A stretch of 34,355 bases of DNA from a virus. This document shows positions 3,750 through 12,721 of this stretch, one piece after another. Under the pieces are notes generated by a model, which saw only the letters and a list, made by a program, of their open reading frames with translations, did not search any database and had not been told where the DNA came from. The position numbers were made by a program, and so were the translations under genes. The stretch's first letter is position 1, and each line of letters starts with the position of its first letter. The DNA is taken from the UHGV virus genome UHGV-2160239; one strand, 5' to 3'.

Positions 3750-3949
3750 ACAAAAAGACCTGGTTTCGCGCATACATGTGGGCGCTGGTATGCGTCCTCG
3801 TCTCTCTCATTCTGTATGCAGGACTACTCCCCCGAATGATTTCATCAGACAGCTCCTTCCTGGTATTGCTGGGCATTTTCATTGCCATGCTGTACCCGGC
3901 AGGCGTTGTTCGCCTTTTCAGTAAGTACATCAAGGAAATCAAACAATGA
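3746..3949 (+). CDS. Small two-helix membrane protein (possible NfeD/YqiJ-like partner of the SPFH protein)
   Basis: 67 aa with two hydrophobic stretches (WALVCVLVSLILYAGLL and FLVLLGIFIAMLYPAGVV); ATGA overlap with the downstream SPFH gene. Confidence 0.55.
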   Translation: MNKKTWFRAYMWALVCVLVSLILYAGLLPRMISSDSSFLVLLGIFIAMLYPAGVVRLFSKYIKEIKQ

Positions 3950-4776
3950 AGAAACTCAAACTCTTTCAGATTATCCCGCTTTTTGCGGCCATCCTGTTGG
4001 TTGGTTGCGATCGCGTTGAGCCAGGTAATGTGGGCATCAAAGTCAACAAGCTGGGCGACGACAAAGGCGTCGGCGAAGTGGTTGGCGTTGGCCGCTACTG
4101 GACTGGCTGGAATACCGAGGTTTACATCTTCCCGACCTTCAAACAAATGAAGACCTACGATGAGCCGTTCAGTTTCCAGATGAGCGATGGCACAACCATC
4201 GGCTATCACATCGGCGTGGCCTACAAGGTTGATCCATCCAAAGTGACCACAGTGTTTCAGACCTACCGCAAAGGCGTGGATGACATTACCGACACTGACC
4301 TGCGCCAGAAGATCGCCGATGCACTCAACCGACTGGCCAGCAAAATGACCACCGATAAGTTTATCGACGGTGGCAAGTCTGAACTGCTGGATTCAGCACT
4401 TAAAGACATTCAGGCAGAAATGACACCTATCGGCATTCAGGTAATGAGCCTCTCTTATGTCGGTAAACCGGAATACCCACCAACCGTTATCGACAGCATT
4501 AATGCCAAAGTCACGGCAAACCAGAAAACTCTGCAACGCGAACAGGAAGTCAAGCAGCGCGAAGCAGAAGCCAACATGCTACGCGCAGAAGCAGCCGGAC
4601 AGGCTGATGCCATTCGCACAAAAGCCCAGGCTGAAGCCGACGCCATTCGTTTGCGCGGTGAAGCTCTGCGCCAGAACCCCGGCGTTATGGAGCTGGAAGC
4701 TATCAACAAATGGAACGGCACGCTGCCGCAATACATGACCAGTAATACCGCTGTTCCGTTTGTTCCGGTGAAGTAA
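3946..4776 (+). CDS. SPFH / band-7 (stomatin-prohibitin-flotillin-like) lipoprotein
   Basis: 276 aa; signal peptide with lipobox LLVGC; central SPFH-like region followed by an Ala/Glu/Arg-rich coiled coil (QREQEVKQREAEANMLRAEAAGQADAIRTKAQAEADAIRLRGEALRQ) typical of band-7 proteins. Confidence 0.8.
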   Translation: MKKLKLFQIIPLFAAILLVGCDRVEPGNVGIKVNKLGDDKGVGEVVGVGRYWTGWNTEVYIFPTFKQMKTYDEPFSFQMSDGTTIGYHIGVAYKVDPSKVTTVFQTYRKGVDDITDTDLRQKIADALNRLASKMTTDKFIDGGKSELLDSALKDIQAEMTPIGIQVMSLSYVGKPEYPPTVIDSINAKVTANQKTLQREQEVKQREAEANMLRAEAAGQADAIRTKAQAEADAIRLRGEALRQNPGVMELEAINKWNGTLPQYMTSNTAVPFVPVK

Positions 4777-5374: not shown

Positions 5375-5446
5375 TTCCTGTTCCGGGCCTTTCCTGCACC
5401 TTGCGGCGGGAGGCCTTCGCACATCTGTACTTTGACGGAGTTTGTG

Positions 5447-7753
5447 ATGAGTACCTCTCACTCATACCCGTGGAACGCGCCGGACTGGGACGTGGCAACA
5501 GCAAACGGCATCACGCCCGACGCTGCCGTCTCTGCCGTGCATGAAACCACCGAAACCACAAGCAACACAGCATTCGCCTACCTGACACCGGACGGCGAAC
5601 GCCGCGTGCTGGATATGAGCGACCTCCGCGCAGTCTGCCGCGAGTATCAGAAGGGGCTTCTGGAGCGCGAACGACAGGAAATCATCCGCCGCCGGAAACA
5701 TGAGGAGTGGCTGCGTCGCCGTCTGGCCACGCTGCCTTCATTCATCCGCACCACCTTCTCCAGAAAACTGGAAAAGATGGACAGAGAAACGCCGGAACGC
5801 GCTTACCACTGGCTTTGCGGAACGTTCGAGAAGCACGTTCTGCGCCGCGTGGATGTGGTAAATGAACAGTACGAACCGCAGACACCGTGGCCCGACATGC
5901 TGCTCCCTTTGCGCGACGCGTTTCACCGCCTGCCGTGGGCGGACAGGAAGAAAATGCGCCACCTCGCCTGGTTGCTGGCCTCCGTCATGACATCGGAATT
6001 CACACGCCGGTTTGATGACCAGTACGCGCTCACGGGCGATCTGGAATCATCCGTGGTGGACGCATACGGCTATATTGCAAGCCGCGCGACTTTTCTGAAC
6101 ATCTTCATCCCCGGTTGGCGGCATTATCAGGGTGAAAGTCTGACACCGGATGATGCACTCCGCTGTGTTTCCCGCCTCCAGTCGCAGAAGTGGTGGCTGG
6201 GAAAAATCCGGCGAATCCACGAATGCTGGCGCGAACATCTGTTGATTGCCACGGGGCACGTGAGCAAATACGCAGGCGCAAAATGCTCTGACGAGTGTCT
6301 CGCATCGTGGCGTGCGCAACGCAAGGCAAACCTTGAATGGATGTCGGCAATGGACCTGGAAAACGAGGATACGGGCGAGCGTATGCCGCTGCTCGACAAG
6401 GTGCTGGGCAGCGTTGCTAACCCGAAAATAGCCCGTCATGAACTCACCGTTCGTGCGGCTGGCTTTCAGGCGACCGCTGACGAGATGGGTTACGTCGCCA
6501 TGTTTTACACACTGACCGCCCCTTCCTCGTATCACTCAATGCGCGTCAAAGACGGAAAACGGAACGACAAATACAACGGGGCCAGTCCGCGTGCCACGCA
6601 GAAATATCTCTGTAAGGTCTGGAGCCGCGTTCGCGCCGCGTGGCGGCGTAAAGGCATCCGCACCTTTGGCATTCGCACCGCTGAGCCTCACCACGACGGA
6701 ACGCCGCACTGGCATCTCGTTCTCTGGTTCCACCCGGACGACACCGAAGAGGCCACACGCATATTCCGGGAGTATGCGCTGGCGGAAGACGGTGGTGAGT
6801 CGGGTGCTGACAAGTACCGCTTTGAAGCGGTCGAAGAGGACAAAACGCGCGGCCGCGCAATTGGCTACATCGTCAAATACATCTCCAAAAACATCGATGG
6901 CTACGGGCTGGATGGCGAAGCCGACCGCGAAACAGGAAAATCCCTGAAAGACGAAGCGCGACGCGTCAGGGCATGGGCTTCGCGCTGGCGTATTCGTCAG
7001 TTCCAGCAGATTGGGGGCGCACCTGTTTCGGTCTGGCGTGAACTGCGCCGACTGGGGGGGTGTGAACTGGTACTGCATCCACAGATTGAAGGCATTCGCG
7101 CCGCAGCAGATGAGGGGGACTGGCAGGCGTACACCATGCTTCAGGGTGGGCCTTTTGTGGAGCGTTGCGAACTGGTGGTTCGTCTCGCCTATGACAGACA
7201 GGAGGATGCCAACGCCTACGGCGACACAGTTTGCAAAATTGCAGGAGTCCGCGACATGACAATGCCGCCGGAAGACATGATTTTCACTCGCCTTAACACT
7301 TACAAAATTGTGCCAAAAGTCAGCAAAAACAATGACAAAGAACAAACAGAAGGCCGCGACGCGGCCCCTTGGAGTTCTGTCAATAACTGTACGCACAGAC
7401 GAAGCAGTGGTGAGCATGAAGGCGAGCATTCCGACAAAACACCACCGGAATCACCGCCGGAAACGGTGAAAAAAGCGCCGGAATCACCATCACAGACAGA
7501 AGAAGATAGCGCCAGTCTTAACCAAATCATCGGGCCGCTGGAGCGACTCGGCTTTACCGTGTCCCGCCACCTCGCAAAATCCGTTCTTGCGGGTGGCGTA
7601 GTGCGCTCAACCGACGGTGTTGTCGCCCGCTGGGACACATCATGTAACAGACTGGTGGTCACGCGCGCGAACGCGTCGCCGTCGCTGGTTGTTTCGAAGG
7701 TTTCCGAATACACCAGACGACTGAAATGGGCGCTGGCACGGAGGTCGCTGTGA
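5447..7753 (+). CDS. A: Replication initiation endonuclease (P2 gpA-like, HUH rolling-circle)
   Basis: About 768 aa from ATG 5447 (GGAG 6 nt upstream); HUH-type metal motif in TPHWHLVLWF and catalytic tyrosine motif GYIVKYISKNIDGY; size and position match P2 gene A. Confidence 0.9.
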   Translation: MSTSHSYPWNAPDWDVATANGITPDAAVSAVHETTETTSNTAFAYLTPDGERRVLDMSDLRAVCREYQKGLLERERQEIIRRRKHEEWLRRRLATLPSFIRTTFSRKLEKMDRETPERAYHWLCGTFEKHVLRRVDVVNEQYEPQTPWPDMLLPLRDAFHRLPWADRKKMRHLAWLLASVMTSEFTRRFDDQYALTGDLESSVVDAYGYIASRATFLNIFIPGWRHYQGESLTPDDALRCVSRLQSQKWWLGKIRRIHECWREHLLIATGHVSKYAGAKCSDECLASWRAQRKANLEWMSAMDLENEDTGERMPLLDKVLGSVANPKIARHELTVRAAGFQATADEMGYVAMFYTLTAPSSYHSMRVKDGKRNDKYNGASPRATQKYLCKVWSRVRAAWRRKGIRTFGIRTAEPHHDGTPHWHLVLWFHPDDTEEATRIFREYALAEDGGESGADKYRFEAVEEDKTRGRAIGYIVKYISKNIDGYGLDGEADRETGKSLKDEARRVRAWASRWRIRQFQQIGGAPVSVWRELRRLGGCELVLHPQIEGIRAAADEGDWQAYTMLQGGPFVERCELVVRLAYDRQEDANAYGDTVCKIAGVRDMTMPPEDMIFTRLNTYKIVPKVSKNNDKEQTEGRDAAPWSSVNNCTHRRSSGEHEGEHSDKTPPESPPETVKKAPESPSQTEEDSASLNQIIGPLERLGFTVSRHLAKSVLAGGVVRSTDGVVARWDTSCNRLVVTRANASPSLVVSKVSEYTRRLKWALARRSL

Positions 7754-8205
7754 GTACCAGCGCCACGCCGTCGTTTTTGCTCTCGCTCGACAATCCCGAC
7801 TGTTGCCGGGTTTTCGGGGGCGCTGTCACGCAACTGGAGCTTACGGGCTGCCGCCGCGCACCTGAGGTCGGCGACATTATCAAAGTCGAGTGGCTTTTTC
7901 TGGGGACTGTCGCGCAGTCGTTTCTGGTTGAGGTTGCCGGGGTTGAGCTCGTTTCCCCCGCCGTTCGCGGCGCTTATGTGGTGGTTCTTCGCTGGCCTGA
8001 ATCCAGTCACGACGGGGTACCCGCCCGTCCGCAGCTTGCTACCCCGCCCGCGCCCCCGCAATTACCCGCCAGCGCAAGTGCTGTCATTGATTGCTACAGA
8101 CAGGAATTGCAGGAAAAGAAGGCGGTGAAATTCCGCAGCAGCATCGCTGCCGCATGGCGAAAGGCCGAACTACTGCAACGAACGCATCAGACAGCTGGCA
8201 GTTGA
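7750..8205 (+). CDS. Hypothetical Pro-rich protein downstream of A
   Basis: Open frame in GC-rich DNA starting at GTG 7750 overlapping the A stop; long ORFs arise by chance in DNA this GC-rich. Confidence 0.3.
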   Translation: MSTSATPSFLLSLDNPDCCRVFGGAVTQLELTGCRRAPEVGDIIKVEWLFLGTVAQSFLVEVAGVELVSPAVRGAYVVVLRWPESSHDGVPARPQLATPPAPPQLPASASAVIDCYRQELQEKKAVKFRSSIAAAWRKAELLQRTHQTAGS

Positions 8206-8261
8206 GGGGGCAACGAATGAAAAGAATTAACGCCAACACGAAGGCGAAAAAACAGACAGAA

Positions 8262-8354
8262 ACGGGATTCACAAATCCCGTAAATGAGCAAAAAACGCGC
8301 CGCGATATATGAAGCGCGCATAAAACAGGCAAAAACGGGATTTCAGAATCCCGT
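8262..8354. promoter_or_regulatory. parC-like centromere / promoter with paired palindromic repeats
   Basis: Two near-identical 20-bp palindromes, ACGGGATTCACAAATCCCGT (8262-8281) and ACGGGATTTCAGAATCCCGT (8335-8354), each ACGGGATT/AATCCCGT around a 4-bp core, directly upstream of parM. Confidence 0.5.
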
Positions 8355-8388
8355 AAACGATTAATTAATCAACATAAGGAAAAACGAC

Positions 8389-9348
8389 ATGAAAATTTGT
8401 ATCGACGACGGCTCCACCAACATCAAGCTGGCATGGACTGAGAACGGCGAACGCCGCAACGCCATCAGCCCGAACAGCTTCAAGTCGGAATGGTCTGCGC
8501 CGTTCGGTGGCACGCAGCCCGCGAACTACATGCTTGATGGCGTGCGCTATGGTTTTGATCCGGTTAGCGATCGCTTTGTCCAGACGACCGACACGCAATA
8601 CCAGTACAGCGATGTGAATGTCATTGCCATTCATCACGCGCTGGTCAAATCAGGCATCACACCACAGGAGGTGGATGTGGTTGTCACCCTTCCACTGAGC
8701 GAGTATTTCGACACAAACGCACAACCGGACATGGCCAACATCAACCGCAAAAAAGCGAACGTTATGCGCCCGGTGGAATACCAGAACGGCGAAGCATTCA
8801 CTATCCGCAACGTACGGGTTATGCCTGAATCCATTCCGGCTGGCTTTAAGGCACTGGCTGACATGAGTCCGTTTGAATCCCTGCTGATTGTGGATTTAGG
8901 CGGAACCACGCTGGATGTGGCAAAGGTTCAGGGACAACTGGCAGGTATCAGCCAGGTGTTTTGCGATCCACACGTAGGCGTTTCCCTGATAGCCGATGCC
9001 GTACTGTCGGTGATGGCCACTAACGGTATGCGTACCAGTCACCATATCGCCAATACCATCATCGAACATCGCCACGATGAAGTCTGGCTGCGCCAGCACA
9101 TCCACAATGACGCGCATTACGACAGCCTGATGGCGGTAATTCGTGAAAAGGAAGAAACACTGAAACAACGCGTGATCCGCGCGCTGGCGGGTTTTTCGGG
9201 TTACGGGCAGGTGATGGTTGTCGGTGGAGGGGCGGAGATTGTGGCACCCGCTATCCGCGAAGCCTGCGGAGTTAATGCGACTTTCATCGCGGACGGGGTG
9301 CCACAGTTTGCTCTGGTTAATGGGCTGTACGCAATGGACAAGGAGTAA
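8389..9348 (+). CDS. parM: Actin-like plasmid segregation ATPase ParM/StbA
   Basis: 319 aa; N-terminal IDDGSTNIKLAW phosphate-1 motif, YSDVNVIAIHHAL, VMPESIPAGF, LIVDLGGTTLDVA phosphate-2 and VMVVGGGAE adenosine motif, collinear with plasmid R1 ParM as I recall it. Confidence 0.9.
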   Translation: MKICIDDGSTNIKLAWTENGERRNAISPNSFKSEWSAPFGGTQPANYMLDGVRYGFDPVSDRFVQTTDTQYQYSDVNVIAIHHALVKSGITPQEVDVVVTLPLSEYFDTNAQPDMANINRKKANVMRPVEYQNGEAFTIRNVRVMPESIPAGFKALADMSPFESLLIVDLGGTTLDVAKVQGQLAGISQVFCDPHVGVSLIADAVLSVMATNGMRTSHHIANTIIEHRHDEVWLRQHIHNDAHYDSLMAVIREKEETLKQRVIRALAGFSGYGQVMVVGGGAEIVAPAIREACGVNATFIADGVPQFALVNGLYAMDKE

Positions 9349-9352
9349 ACCA

Positions 9353-9664
9353 ATGACGACTCCAACCAGACGGATAAGTTTCTATCTGAAGCCCGCCGTC
9401 GTCAAGAACGAAGGCGAAGCATGCGCCTGGCTGGACAGCCTTACACCAGAAGCCCGCAAAAGCGGCCAACGCGTGGCTTTTCTGGCCGGGCTGGCACTAC
9501 TGAAAATGAATCCGGCAGAGGCTTACCGACTGGCTGCATGGGCTGATGATGAGGCGTTATCAGTGACACAAATCAGGACAGAACGCCCCGCGTCACAGCC
9601 AGTATCAACCGCACAGATAACCAGTCAGATGGCCGGAAATATCCGGGCGTTATTTCCCGAATAA
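9353..9664 (+). CDS. parR: ParR-like centromere-binding adaptor
   Basis: 103 aa immediately after parM (AAGGAG RBS); RRISFYLKP ... LDSL ... AFLAGLALL parallels the R1 ParR N-terminal ribbon-helix-helix region RTIAFKLNP ... LDSI ... ALTAGLAL. Confidence 0.7.
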
Positions 9665-9726
9665 CACAACATCAGGGCGTATCCGCCCTGATGACTTTAA
9701 CCCGGGAGCATAAACAAGGGGACACA

Positions 9727-10062
9727 ATGCAACACATTGACAGAGAAAAAGCGCAGCGACTGATTGAGCGGATGGAAGCGCTGGCGAAAGAAGAAAATGT
9801 CAACATCCAAAAAATAGCTGAATGTGGACAGATAGTTCTTCGTCGTGAAAAAGACCTCAAACAACTGATGTTTGGCGAAACCAGTAAAACATGGACTTCA
9901 GGCGAGAAGACGGTTTATTGCAGTTTCTGCAATAAATCCCAGTACGAAGTCACAAAGGTGATTGCCGGACCGTCTGTTTACATCTGCAATGAGTGCGTGG
10001 ATTTGTTCAATGAAATTATCAGGAGAGAAGTGACAGGCCATGAAGAAAAAACGCATGAATGA
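9727..10062 (+). CDS. Standalone ClpX-type C4 zinc-finger domain protein
   Basis: 111 aa from ATG 9727 (AGGGG RBS); C-terminal [38 protein letters not shown] is collinear with the ClpX N-terminal zinc-binding domain (CxxC ... CxxC); N-terminal about 60 aa is a charged helical region. Confidence 0.7.
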
Positions 10063-10123
10063 CGAATTTGACGGTTTTTAATTTTATCGGGGCGCACTGT
10101 CCACCCCGCACGAGGAAAACACG

Positions 10124-10648
10124 ATGAAAAAATACGAATACATGCTGATGAAAGAAGCACTGCGGGTTGGTTTGGCTCCCTGTCCTGTATCCGTAGAAGC
10201 TGTTGTTGGGAACACGATTTTCCGAACGCTGCGAAATCGCGTATCCGTGAAAATGATTCACCAACCACCCAATTCTATCAGCATGATTTATCTGCCGCTG
10301 CCCGAGGCTATCAAACTTATGCGTTCGTTGAAATTTGCGATTTGGATGCAGACACAACTCAACAAAGCGGTGCAAAACACCTTCGTTAAGAAACTGATGC
10401 CGGAGCTTGCTGCCAGATGTGCAAAATGTACCAGACCCGCACTTCAATTTGATCTGTCATTGATTCAACAAGCTACGGAGGCAGAACTGTACCGCCTGTC
10501 ACCTCTCCGTGATGCTCACACGGAAGCCTCAGAAATGTTCCGGCTCATGTTTCAATTTAATTTTGCCGTTCGACGCACACGCGTTCAGGTCAATCGCATG
10601 ATGCAGGCGCAGGAAGAGCTGGCGCAACACAAAGGAGACAACCAGTGA
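10124..10648 (+). CDS. Hypothetical protein (174 aa), first gene of a coupled pair
   Basis: GAGGAAAA RBS; stop overlaps the GTG start of the next gene; no recognisable catalytic motif. Confidence 0.5.
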   Translation: MKKYEYMLMKEALRVGLAPCPVSVEAVVGNTIFRTLRNRVSVKMIHQPPNSISMIYLPLPEAIKLMRSLKFAIWMQTQLNKAVQNTFVKKLMPELAARCAKCTRPALQFDLSLIQQATEAELYRLSPLRDAHTEASEMFRLMFQFNFAVRRTRVQVNRMMQAQEELAQHKGDNQ

Positions 10649-11184
10649 GCAAGATTGACTATCAGGCACTACAAATGGCAGCAGAACGTGCAATTCCGGC
10701 AATGGAACGCCTGTTAATATTGCCAGTTGATGATGATTTGTTAAGCGAACAGGAACTTAAAGATTGCGGTGTGGATATTGACGCGATCAACACCTTCAGA
10801 CTTCTGGCTGGACCGGAAACCATGCTGGCACTGCTGGAACAACAGAAAGTCAAGGACAACCGAATCGCTGAACTGGAAAAAATCGTTACTGACTATGCAC
10901 TTAAATTCCAGAAAGCACAGGACGCATTAAAGTATGCCGCTTTGCTGCATAGCCGGACGGCGCAACAAACAAATAATTTTGCAGTATTGCTTCCGGACAT
11001 AAGCGAATATTTCATTAATGACGTATTTCAGCCCTTGCGATATGAGCGGGATGTTGAAAGAGCCATCATAAAGGCTGGCGGAAAAGCATTGTGGCAGGAG
11101 AAACAGGAGGACAGAACGCATCAGTCCTGCGATGTAAATCGCGGATGGTTTAGCCCACTGACGACAGATAAAAATAACACCTGA
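10645..11184 (+). CDS. Ead/Ea22-like family protein (tentative)
   Basis: 179 aa, GTG start with AAAGGAGA RBS; N-terminus MSKIDYQALQMAAERA and coiled-coil LALLEQQKVKDNRIAELEK resemble the lambdoid Ea22/Ead family as I recall it. Confidence 0.5.
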   Translation: MSKIDYQALQMAAERAIPAMERLLILPVDDDLLSEQELKDCGVDIDAINTFRLLAGPETMLALLEQQKVKDNRIAELEKIVTDYALKFQKAQDALKYAALLHSRTAQQTNNFAVLLPDISEYFINDVFQPLRYERDVERAIIKAGGKALWQEKQEDRTHQSCDVNRGWFSPLTTDKNNT

Positions 11185-11623
11185 TCCCCCTCAAACTAGG
11201 GCGATAATCGCGCATCGCCCTGCTGCACAATAGTGCACAAACTTGCACAATTTTTTTGAACGACTTTTTGCCCTTCCAGCCCCCGTGGCGGCTGGATCCG
11301 TCAAGGATCCGTGCGTGCACAAAAAAACGCGTTTTTTCTGCGCGCAGGTGACGGGGGAACAGCCCGCGTTTCAGGGGGTAAATAGCATTCCCTGAACGAT
11401 GTCGCAGCGACACAACAGAATGGCTGTATTTCTCACACTGAGCGTGAAAAAGGCGTGAGGGCTTTTGATTTGATGGGGTGACAGATAAGGCCGTCAAAAT
11501 CGCACTGAGGCGGCAGGAACATGCAGTCAACGCGGTGGGATTGCGTAAGAGCCTGACCGTCGATGATGGCGATAAGCTGGAAGACGTCGTGAAATTATCT
11601 GATTGATACAGGAGCTGGAGAGT

Positions 11624-11646
11624 CGGGGCATAAATTTTTTATGCCC
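11624..11646. terminator. Hairpin terminator downstream of portal gene Q
   Basis: GGGGCATAAA TTTTTTATGCCCC perfect inverted repeat with a central T/A run, just 3-prime of the Q stop on the minus strand; could act in both directions. Confidence 0.5.
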
Positions 11647-11674
11647 CGGCGAAGCAGCAGACAAGCGAAGCGCG

Positions 11675-12721
11675 TCAGGATGTGGGCTGGGTGTCCAGCA
11701 GTGCGTAAGGGTTAAAGCGGATCACCTCTTCGCCAAGCCAGTCATTGATATGCTTCATGGCCTCCATGACGGGCATCAGCTCGTTAATTGCGTAAACCCG
11801 CGCTGCCTTCTCCACATCACCAAACGCACTTTTTTCGCCCGGCATCGCCCCCATCAGTTGCGGCGGAACGCGGTGCGCAGCCAGCACATCATCACGGGAT
11901 GCCGCCTTAACATTCATGAACTCATCCTTTGCGGTGATCTGCTGGAACGGCAAAATTTGCACACCTTCTTTGCCCCCGTTGGGCGCGTGAATGAGCACGT
12001 TTTTAAATGCACCACCACCACGCGCACCCTGTAGCGTTTCCTTCAGGGAGTCCATGCTTTCGCGGTTTACCTGCGCTGCACCGATGTAGATGATGCACCC
12101 GGCGTGGGATCCATTGTCGTAGTACAGTTTTCTGAACATGTCCGCCGAATGAGACAGGCTGGCCGAGAGTAATGCGCCAAGATATTCCGGCATGCCGTAA
12201 ATTTCCTGGTTAATGTCCGGATTCATCAGGTGGCACACTTTGCCAGGGCGAAACTGAAACGCGTCGTTGCCATCCTGCACATACCACCATGATTCAAGAT
12301 CGCTTCCGCGCCGCATGTATTTCGCCAGTGCGTGCCGTAATTTAAGTGGTTCGCCGAGCATATTGCTCCGAAGCTCAAGGAATGCGTTACCGAACACAAA
12401 CCAGTCCAGCGCCAGCGCCGAGAAATCCTGCCGGGAAAGCAGCGGGTGCGGGATGTAGCAACCGAGTAATACATTGCGCTTAAAGTAAAGCGCAGACTGA
12501 TGCCAGGACGTTTGCCGGGCGGCTCTTGCCAGACCGTACCAGTCCACCGGGGTTTCATACCACCGCCCGTTATCAGCACAGTACATATTGTCCAGCAGGT
12601 CATGCCCGGTCAGGCGGTAAGGACCATCAAATGTGAATGCACTGAGCGACGATTCTTTCCTGAGCGCATCAGCGAGATCAATGCGTGAACTCATGCGCAC
12701 TTTTTTATTTTTTCTGCTCAT
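11675..12721 (-). CDS. Q: Portal protein (P2 gpQ-like)
   Basis: 348 aa; start overlaps the terminase stop; divergent from the capsid operon exactly as P2 Q-P; size matches gpQ. Confidence 0.85.
   Translation of the reverse strand: MSRKNKKVRMSSRIDLADALRKESSLSAFTFDGPYRLTGHDLLDNMYCADNGRWYETPVDWYGLARAARQTSWHQSALYFKRNVLLGCYIPHPLLSRQDFSALALDWFVFGNAFLELRSNMLGEPLKLRHALAKYMRRGSDLESWWYVQDGNDAFQFRPGKVCHLMNPDINQEIYGMPEYLGALLSASLSHSADMFRKLYYDNGSHAGCIIYIGAAQVNRESMDSLKETLQGARGGGAFKNVLIHAPNGGKEGVQILPFQQITAKDEFMNVKAASRDDVLAAHRVPPQLMGAMPGEKSAFGDVEKAARVYAINELMPVMEAMKHINDWLGEEVIRFNPYALLDTQPTS

Follow-up and report, generated by a model that had tools for sequence, protein, structure and literature searches.

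A fixed partition cassette and a variable cargo slot between genes A and Q of a P88-like prophage

The virus genome UHGV-2160239 (34,355 nt; the whole of this stretch is called the window below) belongs to a P88-like peduovirus of the genus Xuanwuvirus, a P2-family prophage. On both sides of the interval studied here, positions 7754-11674 between the replication gene A and the portal gene Q, it showed 93-97% DNA identity to P88, PhiR44_2, P88_4B11, Chuche, Citrobacter phage phiSM and others. The original prediction, made from the sequence alone, had taken these 3.9 kb for one accessory island at the place where P2 carries tin and old. The position was borne out: A, a Phage_GPA protein, ends at 7753 and Q, on the minus strand, at 11675, the same slot in the map as that occupied by orf91, tin, old and cos in P2. 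The interval itself very probably consists not of one accessory island but of four units of different history: the end of a swapped-in replication module, a partition cassette, a cargo slot, and conserved DNA near the genome end.

The open reading frames (ORFs) of the window were listed and scanned against Pfam, PADLOC, PHROGs and NCBIfam (Table 1). As predicted, parM, parR, a gene for a ClpX zinc-finger protein and two further genes lie on the plus strand between A and Q. This inventory had overlooked orf151 (7750-8205), a 151-codon gene whose GTG start codon overlaps the stop codon of A, and the remnant of another gene A (8247-8312). One of the two genes described as unknown, o174, belonged to no family, but the other codes for an Ead/Ea22-like protein (PF13935; E = 4.7e-18). 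The ∼490 bp between the latter gene and Q contained no convincing gene. Chance ORFs were ruled out by the length of the reading frames, by strong family matches, and by dN/dS values of 0.05-0.29 for parM, the ClpX-domain gene and o174. The Q protein was 48% identical to Q of P2 and 98-100% identical to Q of the P88-like loci.

Positions 8247-9664 make up a partition cassette of type II (R1-like), a core, fixed feature of the P88-like (Xuanwuvirus) branch. The parM product matched the Pfam families StbA_N (E = 1.8e-82) and ParM C-terminal domain (E = 4.6e-68), and its residues 2-316 aligned to residues 2-318 of the structure of ParM from plasmid R1 (1mwk; E = 1e-92). The parR gene starts 5 nt past the parM stop codon; its product matched Plasmid_stab_B (8.4e-24) and phrog_2515, annotated as 'partition protein' (8.8e-58), and a sequence search of the PDB with ParR returned no match. 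A scan for ParR retrieved 80 loci from IMG/VR, and these were used as the catalogue of P88-like loci; the same scan of genome contigs gave four loci, two of them probably contaminated. In all 80 catalogued loci parM adjoined parR (parM at least 97% and ParR 94-100% identical to those of the window), and a P88-type gene A preceded parMR in every one of the 75 loci for which the upstream flank had been captured. Further, parM was present at 95% identity or more in 1303 of 5426 complete Escherichia coli genomes (24%), and its dN/dS of 0.05-0.08 indicates strong purifying selection. By synteny, the partition cassette proved to be core to Xuanwuvirus, whereas the three genes downstream of it did not. 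Literature searches found no paper dealing specifically with parMR in P88-like phages.

A repeat search identified two copies of a 39-nt repeat upstream of parM, each containing a palindrome of the form ACGGGATT-N4-AATCCCGT. The two palindromes, which are candidate parC sites, lie 73 bp apart, and the first sits within the retained remnant of gene A. In loci from Salmonella and Escherichia albertii, in which ParR is 55% identical to that of the window, the arms of the palindromes and the 73-bp spacing were unchanged while the central four bases varied, which fits a binding site for a dimeric protein. Site 2 was conserved in two loci, L023 and L025. The latter, from E. albertii (6890-8315), is a mosaic within the par operon, with a ParM 98% identical and a ParR 55% identical (dN/dS 0.43) to those of the window, and with unchanged palindromes. 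Two ParR sequences 91-94% identical to that of the window came from assemblies of Firmicutes, namely Vagococcus sp. (L022; NZ_JBQPOM010000071.1) and Fredinandcohnia humi (L024; JBLKRX010000173.1); these contigs look like enterobacterial contamination.

The genuine cargo slot, 9665-11223, adjoins the genome end. The predicted variable cargo position therefore holds for ∼1.56 kb of the 3.9 kb, but not for the rest. Local blastn comparison with 14 sister loci showed all of them to be homologous to the window from 8247 to ∼9664-9751, and again from 11178-11225 into Q, the DNA in between being different. Among 57 complete slots (those of 56 IMG/VR loci plus that of the window) there were 20 arrangements, with slot lengths of 986-4169 bp; the length seen in the window, 2010 bp, was common to only one other locus. 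The trio present in the window (the ClpX-domain gene, o174 and the Ead-like gene, with at least 80% of the query covered) was found in only seven of the 5426 complete E. coli genomes. In sister phages the same slot held IetA and IetS (PADLOC, 3.6e-89 and 6.6e-41), an RmrA-like protein with a PIN protein (a RosmerTA-like pair), Doc/Phd, a YafO module, DUF4760 and DUF3800 proteins, and several unknowns.

Both edges of the slot are marked by hairpins. That on the left (9670-9693; -18.7 kcal/mol, z = -4.7) has no U-tract on the plus strand, while the right edge shows a weak terminator-like hairpin (11233-11248; -6.1 kcal/mol, z = -1.65) with a T-run behind it. In the sister phages the first cargo gene, whatever it is, starts at +64 from the parR stop codon behind a shared leader, and it would be at this leader that first cargo genes are exchanged. 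No promoter belonging to the cargo was detected, so its transcription probably starts at the par promoter and runs on into the slot, which would give expression in lysogens. Co-transcription with parMR is the simplest reading of cargo expression, and its weak point is that a promoter scan found no sigma-70-like site for either parM or the cargo; the scheme of transcription is thus one that we infer.

The first 0.5 kb of the presumed island turned out to belong to a swapped-in replication module. The A protein of the window matched Phage_GPA (Pfam; E = 8e-93), with 31% identity to A of P88 and 38% to A of P2. It was 97% identical to A of E. coli SWHEFF_58 and of a metagenome scaffold; among isolated phages, the closest A proteins (56-58%) were those of Klebsiella peduoviruses. 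The same type of A is followed by orf151 in SWHEFF_58, where orf151 is annotated by NCBI, and the pair is also present in the metagenome scaffold; orf151 was called in locus L005 as well (97-99% identity). Its product had no match in Pfam, PHROGs, NCBIfam or PADLOC and no similarity to Orf91 of P2. The dN/dS of orf151 was 0.56 at a dS of 0.027, too few substitutions for selection to be read from it. In tblastn searches, the 66 nt at 8247-8312 corresponded to the C-terminus of A from PhiR44_2 (100% identity) and from P88 (86%), and in SWHEFF_58 this remnant is annotated by NCBI as a partial 'DNA replication protein' pseudogene. Compared with the prophage of E. coli ET358, which is otherwise 98% identical, homology ended at 5429 and resumed at 8247, and in all the P88-like loci homology to the window set in at precisely 8247. 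This type of A with orf151 occurred in none of the 80 IMG/VR loci, and isolated phages did not have this type of A either. The arrangement is a clean cassette replacement (5430-8312), with its left junction at the start of A and its right junction at 8246|8247. Through recombination, the unusual A and the orf151 coupled to it took the place of the P88-type A that is usual here. What is left of the old A, its final 66 nt, would have been retained because it carries half of the candidate partition site, and the junction would lie at 8246|8247 because that site reaches into the end of the lineage's own A.

Nor do the last 450 bp (11224-11674) behave as cargo: they are non-coding DNA conserved in the loci of all the sister phages. 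They include an ORF of 42 codons (11478-11606), whose product had no match in Pfam, PHROGs, NCBIfam or PADLOC, and a hairpin (11622-11650; -21.5 kcal/mol, z = -6.8) at the position of tQ in P2. This segment is in all likelihood conserved DNA of the packaging end. An ORF on the minus strand (11150-11530) was discarded as spurious, having no family match and being left unannotated by NCBI; it recurs among relatives because the underlying non-coding DNA is conserved. The termini of the linear record LR595891 meet at 11268|11269, a junction that may mark cos. The 19-mer of the P2 cos site was absent when up to three mismatches were allowed, and comparison of the P2 cos junction with 11150-11700 gave a weak gapped match at ∼11504-11526, inside the conserved 42-codon ORF and at a P2-like distance from Q. 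There are therefore two candidate positions for cos, 11268|11269 and ∼11504-11526, which counts against too precise a view of the packaging end. A second insertion point was seen beside the stop codon of Q (11678-11694 in the window; 6400-7028 in locus L001; 4236-4856 in locus L012). PhiR44_2, EcPF40 and four of the IMG/VR slot classes have an extra gene of ∼525-560 nt (174-187 aa) at this point, with no match in Pfam or PADLOC; the window lacks it.

Table 1. Features of the window from gene A to gene Q
Feature	Position	Strand	Remarks
Replication gene A, unusual type	5447-7753	+	768 aa from ATG at 5447; ORF opens at 5432
orf151, 151 aa, without family	7750-8205	+	GTG start overlapping the stop codon of A
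Remnant of P88-type gene A, 66 nt, last 22 codons	8247-8312	+	tblastn
Candidate parC site 1, 20-bp palindrome ACGGGATTcacaAATCCCGT	8262-8281		Inside 39-nt direct repeat
Candidate parC site 2, 20-bp palindrome ACGGGATTtcagAATCCCGT	8335-8354		35 nt upstream of the start codon of parM
parM, 319-aa actin-like partition ATPase of type II	8389-9348	+	StbA_N and ParM C-terminal domain
parR, partition adaptor, 103 aa	9353-9664	+	Plasmid_stab_B
Stable hairpin directly after parR	9670-9693	+	Bounds the variable slot on its left
Stand-alone ClpX zinc-binding-domain (ZBD) protein, 111 aa	9727-10062	+	zf-C4_ClpX
o174, 174-aa ORFan	10124-10648	+	Translationally coupled to the Ead-like gene
Ead/Ea22-like protein, 179 aa	10645-11184	+	PF13935; start overlaps the o174 stop
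Conserved non-coding DNA near genome end	11224-11674		Right flank of the slot
Portal gene Q	11675-12721	-	Pfam Phage_portal; terminase gene P next

The make-up of the cassette suggests a partition system that probably works. The two palindromes would serve as ParR operators flanking the likely promoter, with parM and parR following; ParR bound to them would cap ParM filaments that push circular phage genomes apart, and partition of this kind would stabilize an excised or not-yet-integrated episome. The likeness to parMRC of plasmid R1 extends to an end-to-end alignment of ParM, to the Pfam family of ParR and to the order of the elements (repeats, parM, parR). Several observations weigh against so simple a picture. 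The candidate parC is made up of two 20-bp palindromes 73 bp apart and not of the ten 11-bp direct iterons of R1, and the binding of ParR to it is putative. The host replicon differs too, being here an integrating phage that is nearly always chromosomal: in the complete E. coli genomes, 1441 of 1443 places with parM were in chromosomes, and only one complete P88-like genome turned up as a circular 'plasmid' deposit, so that a plasmid lifestyle would at best be transient.

The one genome deposited as a plasmid (L106; NZ_CP148288.1, 1-34461) is a whole P88-like genome of 34.5 kb; its record, from an E. coli isolate, describes a circular 'plasmid' that is non-mobilizable. The genome carries an integrase, parMR and all the structural genes, and represents either an episomal state or excised, replicating DNA. 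It might be taken, with the completeness and conservation of ParM, ParR and the candidate parC, as a sign that the main function of the cassette is to support a low-copy plasmid-prophage life of the P88-like phages, an idea put forward in passing by Rousset et al. (PMC9122126). Such a function seems rather doubtful given the almost exclusively chromosomal location of parM. The deposited copy, moreover, has an annotated tyrosine integrase (the window has a 340-aa ORF at 1-1023, in the corresponding place), and a circular contig of 34.5 kb could equally be excised, replicating DNA arising from spontaneous induction. Another view would keep the 3.9 kb together, cassette included, as one horizontally acquired island, for example a recently captured plasmid fragment. 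It is true that parM has ∼66% DNA identity to the parM of many conjugative enterobacterial plasmids, that its product is close to ParM of R1, and that both partition genes are of plasmid type and missing from P2. This view is nevertheless contradicted by synteny, and is very improbable. The cassette occurred at the same position, with 94-100% identity, in every P88-like locus examined, it is present in about a quarter of the E. coli genomes and it is under strong purifying selection. Further, the first palindrome lies within the coding end of A, the gene native to the lineage, which points to an old integration into the phage backbone; together with the fixation of the cassette, this means that any capture was ancestral to the lineage and not specific to the prophage of the window. 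A cassette fixed in the branch, beside a slot with changing contents, thus remains the preferred reading.

The first gene in the slot codes for a stand-alone copy of the ClpX ZBD. The protein matched zf-C4_ClpX (PF06689; 1.5e-17) with its four cysteines conserved, and falls in phrog_6797, a family of 'unknown function'. Searches of the PDB matched 1ovx and 2ds5 (2ds5-2ds8) with E values of about 1e-17, and 29 of the 36 residues in the C-terminal core were identical to those of E. coli ClpX. In an AlphaFold2 (AF2) model with a pLDDT of 73, residues 6-48 form a helical hairpin and residues 49-62 a disordered linker, which the C-terminal ZBD follows; the modelled ZBD superposes on 2ds5-2ds8, including the complex of the ZBD with the SspB tail, at 0.6-0.8 Å and 75-78% identity. 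The protein thus has the C4 zinc-finger fold of ClpX, with 75-81% identity across the domain and a model that superposes to within less than 1 Å, but its ZBD is C-terminal, and the flexible linker attaches it to a helical hairpin specific to the phage. No AAA+ module was found in the 111-aa protein: only the first ∼50 positions of the ClpX models were matched, by residues 72-119 when counted on the 123-aa ORF read from 9691 (46 bits, against a family cut-off of 359 bits). It therefore cannot unfold substrates. A start at the ATG at 9691 was rejected, since this codon lies inside the hairpin, every annotated homologue begins at the position equivalent to 9727, and the ATG at 9727 has a good Shine-Dalgarno sequence before it. 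The gene had a dN/dS of 0.09-0.21. P2-like prophages without parMR and with other types of A have a Salmonella homologue (41% identity) in the same A-Q slot; the ZBD of this homologue is near that of its host, and its N-terminus has diverged.

Free ClpX ZBD supplied in trans inhibits RssB-mediated sigma-S breakdown by ClpXP in vitro (PMC7226468, Figure 1d). Literature searches found no published function for stand-alone ClpX zinc fingers encoded by phages. We tentatively propose that the 111-aa protein may be a phage-made decoy of the host ClpX N-domain that modulates adaptor-dependent ClpXP proteolysis; this is a possibility rather than the expected outcome. The tethered ZBD could soak up docking adaptors or substrates (SspB, RssB/sigma-S), or could pair with the N-domains of ClpX. 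Other candidates for such capture are the N-domain-dependent substrates described for ClpX, such as proteins of the lambda O or MuA type and some antitoxins. Adaptor-dependent ClpXP proteolysis would then be selectively dampened in the lysogen or early in infection. If the proposal is true, the protein would represent a new class of phage-encoded protease modulator, recurring in the A-Q slot of several P2-like lineages. The action of T7 Gp4.5 on Lon follows a comparable logic. What speaks against an important role is that at least two prophages have the gene as a pseudogene and 11 of the 20 slot classes lack it, so that it must be dispensable. The two copies are those of ET358 (L003, 5482-5816) and CDE6306 (L013, 3124-3312), one annotated as frameshifted and the other as having an internal stop codon; apart from this, the two prophages hardly differ from the window. 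This dispensability holds for established lysogens. In RM10740 (L008, 2840-4093) and in IMG/VR slot class 7 the ClpX zinc-finger gene adjoins a Phd/Doc pair. Since Phd of P1 is a substrate of ClpXP, a functional link between the two is conceivable.

The remaining two genes of the trio are translationally coupled. The product of o174 had no match in Pfam, PHROGs, NCBIfam or PADLOC. A word-indexed search among 5.8 billion proteins found its relatives in eight clusters, and an HMM profile of o174, run exhaustively against 1.84 billion representatives, returned three proteins, all of them close relatives. The dN/dS of 0.24-0.29 is that of a real gene, and by its narrow distribution o174 is restricted to these prophages. 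In the four other slot classes that hold o174, it is followed by the start of an Ead-like gene; in one of them (L013) a YafO module is inserted and a remnant of the Ead-like gene is left. Any assignment of a role to o174 meets the difficulty that no functional clue emerged: the AF2 model, built on an alignment of six sequences, had a pLDDT of 49 and was unusable, and remote homologues were not found.

The Ead/Ea22-like protein scored 66.5 bits against a Pfam cut-off of 27, and has an N-terminal domain and a coiled-coil region, both features shared with Ea22 of lambda and Ead of P22; a search of the PDB gave no match. Its gene is chimeric. The segment 10631-10839, covering the first ∼60 codons, showed ∼88% DNA identity to Stx and lambdoid phages, whereas from 10831-10851 on, that is, over the C-terminal two thirds, it matched the Ead-like gene of other P88-like phages. 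The C-terminal domain is unrelated to the solved C-terminal domain of lambda Ea22, which the PDB search did not return. The setting differs as well, the gene being located beside the genome end of a P2-like phage and not in the exo-xis region. Lambda Ea22 favours lysogeny (PMC7093339, PMC10834534), a pro-lysogenic activity known for lambdoid phages only (lambda and Stx phages; PMC7093339). Our guess is that the o174/Ead-like pair has a developmental or host-modulating function, and not one in defence.

None of the P2 occupants was present, as had been predicted: tblastn searches of the window with Old, Tin and Orf91 of P2 gave no match at E ≤ 1, and no ATPase/TOPRIM domain of the Old type was among the Pfam matches in the interval. 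The suggestion that defence-system predictors be run was also followed, and PADLOC gave no match for any ORF of the interval (E ≤ 0.01). The trio might still, alone or together, form an unrecognized anti-phage exclusion system in the role of old and tin. It lies at the same position beside the genome end, sister phages hold defence or toxin-antitoxin modules there (IetAS, RmrA-like plus PIN, Doc/Phd, YafO), several previously unknown systems from this hotspot were validated by Rousset et al. (PMC9122126), and the coupling of o174 to the Ead-like gene would suit a joint function. Against this stand the silence of PADLOC and the lack of any enzymatic or effector domain in the trio; its genes occur in varying combinations, which argues against an obligate system. 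Moreover, in lambdoid phages the relatives of Ead/Ea22 are developmental genes of the early region, and they promote lysogeny (PMC7093339, PMC10834534), and the hotspot harbours non-defence genes too (PMC9122126). An exclusion function of the trio is therefore improbable, and mixed cargo in a variable slot remains the reading adopted here.

The idea of a hotspot between A and Q is not new, and the island of the original prediction restates a known feature. Rousset et al. (2022) named the gpA-gpQ locus a hotspot after a survey of 18,150 E. coli prophages; about a fourth of these prophages carry a putative plasmid partitioning system, and Table S5 of that work lists StbA and Plasmid_stab_B together with zf-C4_ClpX, Ead_Ea22, DUF4760 and other partners (PMC9122126). 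A follow-up from 2026 confirmed the GpA-GpQ hotspot (PMC13586616). The window agrees with it in its position beside the genome end and in having contents that vary among close relatives. That survey took everything between A and Q as one locus, while here it resolves into a fixed cassette and a 1.56-kb slot with defined edges; and while the slots of sister phages hold defence systems, the cargo of the window matches no known defence family. The additions made here are this split between cassette and slot, the candidate parC that reaches into gene A, the swap of the A cassette, and the proposal for the ClpX-domain protein. Compared with P2 (NC_001895, 30.3-33.6 kb), in which the order is A, orf91, tin, old, cosR | cosL, tQ, Q, the window is alike in map position, in having a small ORF translationally coupled to A (orf91 in P2, orf151 here) and in carrying non-essential cargo between that ORF and cos. 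Apart from the partition genes, which P2 does not have, and the homologues of Old, Tin and Orf91 and the cos 19-mer, which the window does not have, the two differ in that the P2 cargo is on the minus strand with its own promoter near cos, whereas here it is on the plus strand behind parMR.

For annotation, this layout means that the cassette, present in about a quarter of E. coli genomes, is best treated as backbone, and that the ∼1-4 kb after parR should be mined for cargo. It also raises the question of why a phage that is almost always integrated keeps an intact and strongly constrained plasmid partition machine, and whether a stand-alone copy of the docking domain of host ClpX could act as a phage switch on ClpXP proteolysis.

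Outside the interval, the gene at 3946-4776 of the window, coding for a lipoprotein of 276 aa, showed ∼92% DNA identity to a gene that phiP27 and many Stx-converting lambdoid phages have; the lipoprotein gene is variously annotated, depending on the record, as coding for an SPFH-domain protein, a 'serine protease' or a lipoprotein. This likeness suggests another piece exchanged between P2-like and lambdoid phages, as in the case of the N-terminus of the Ead-like protein.

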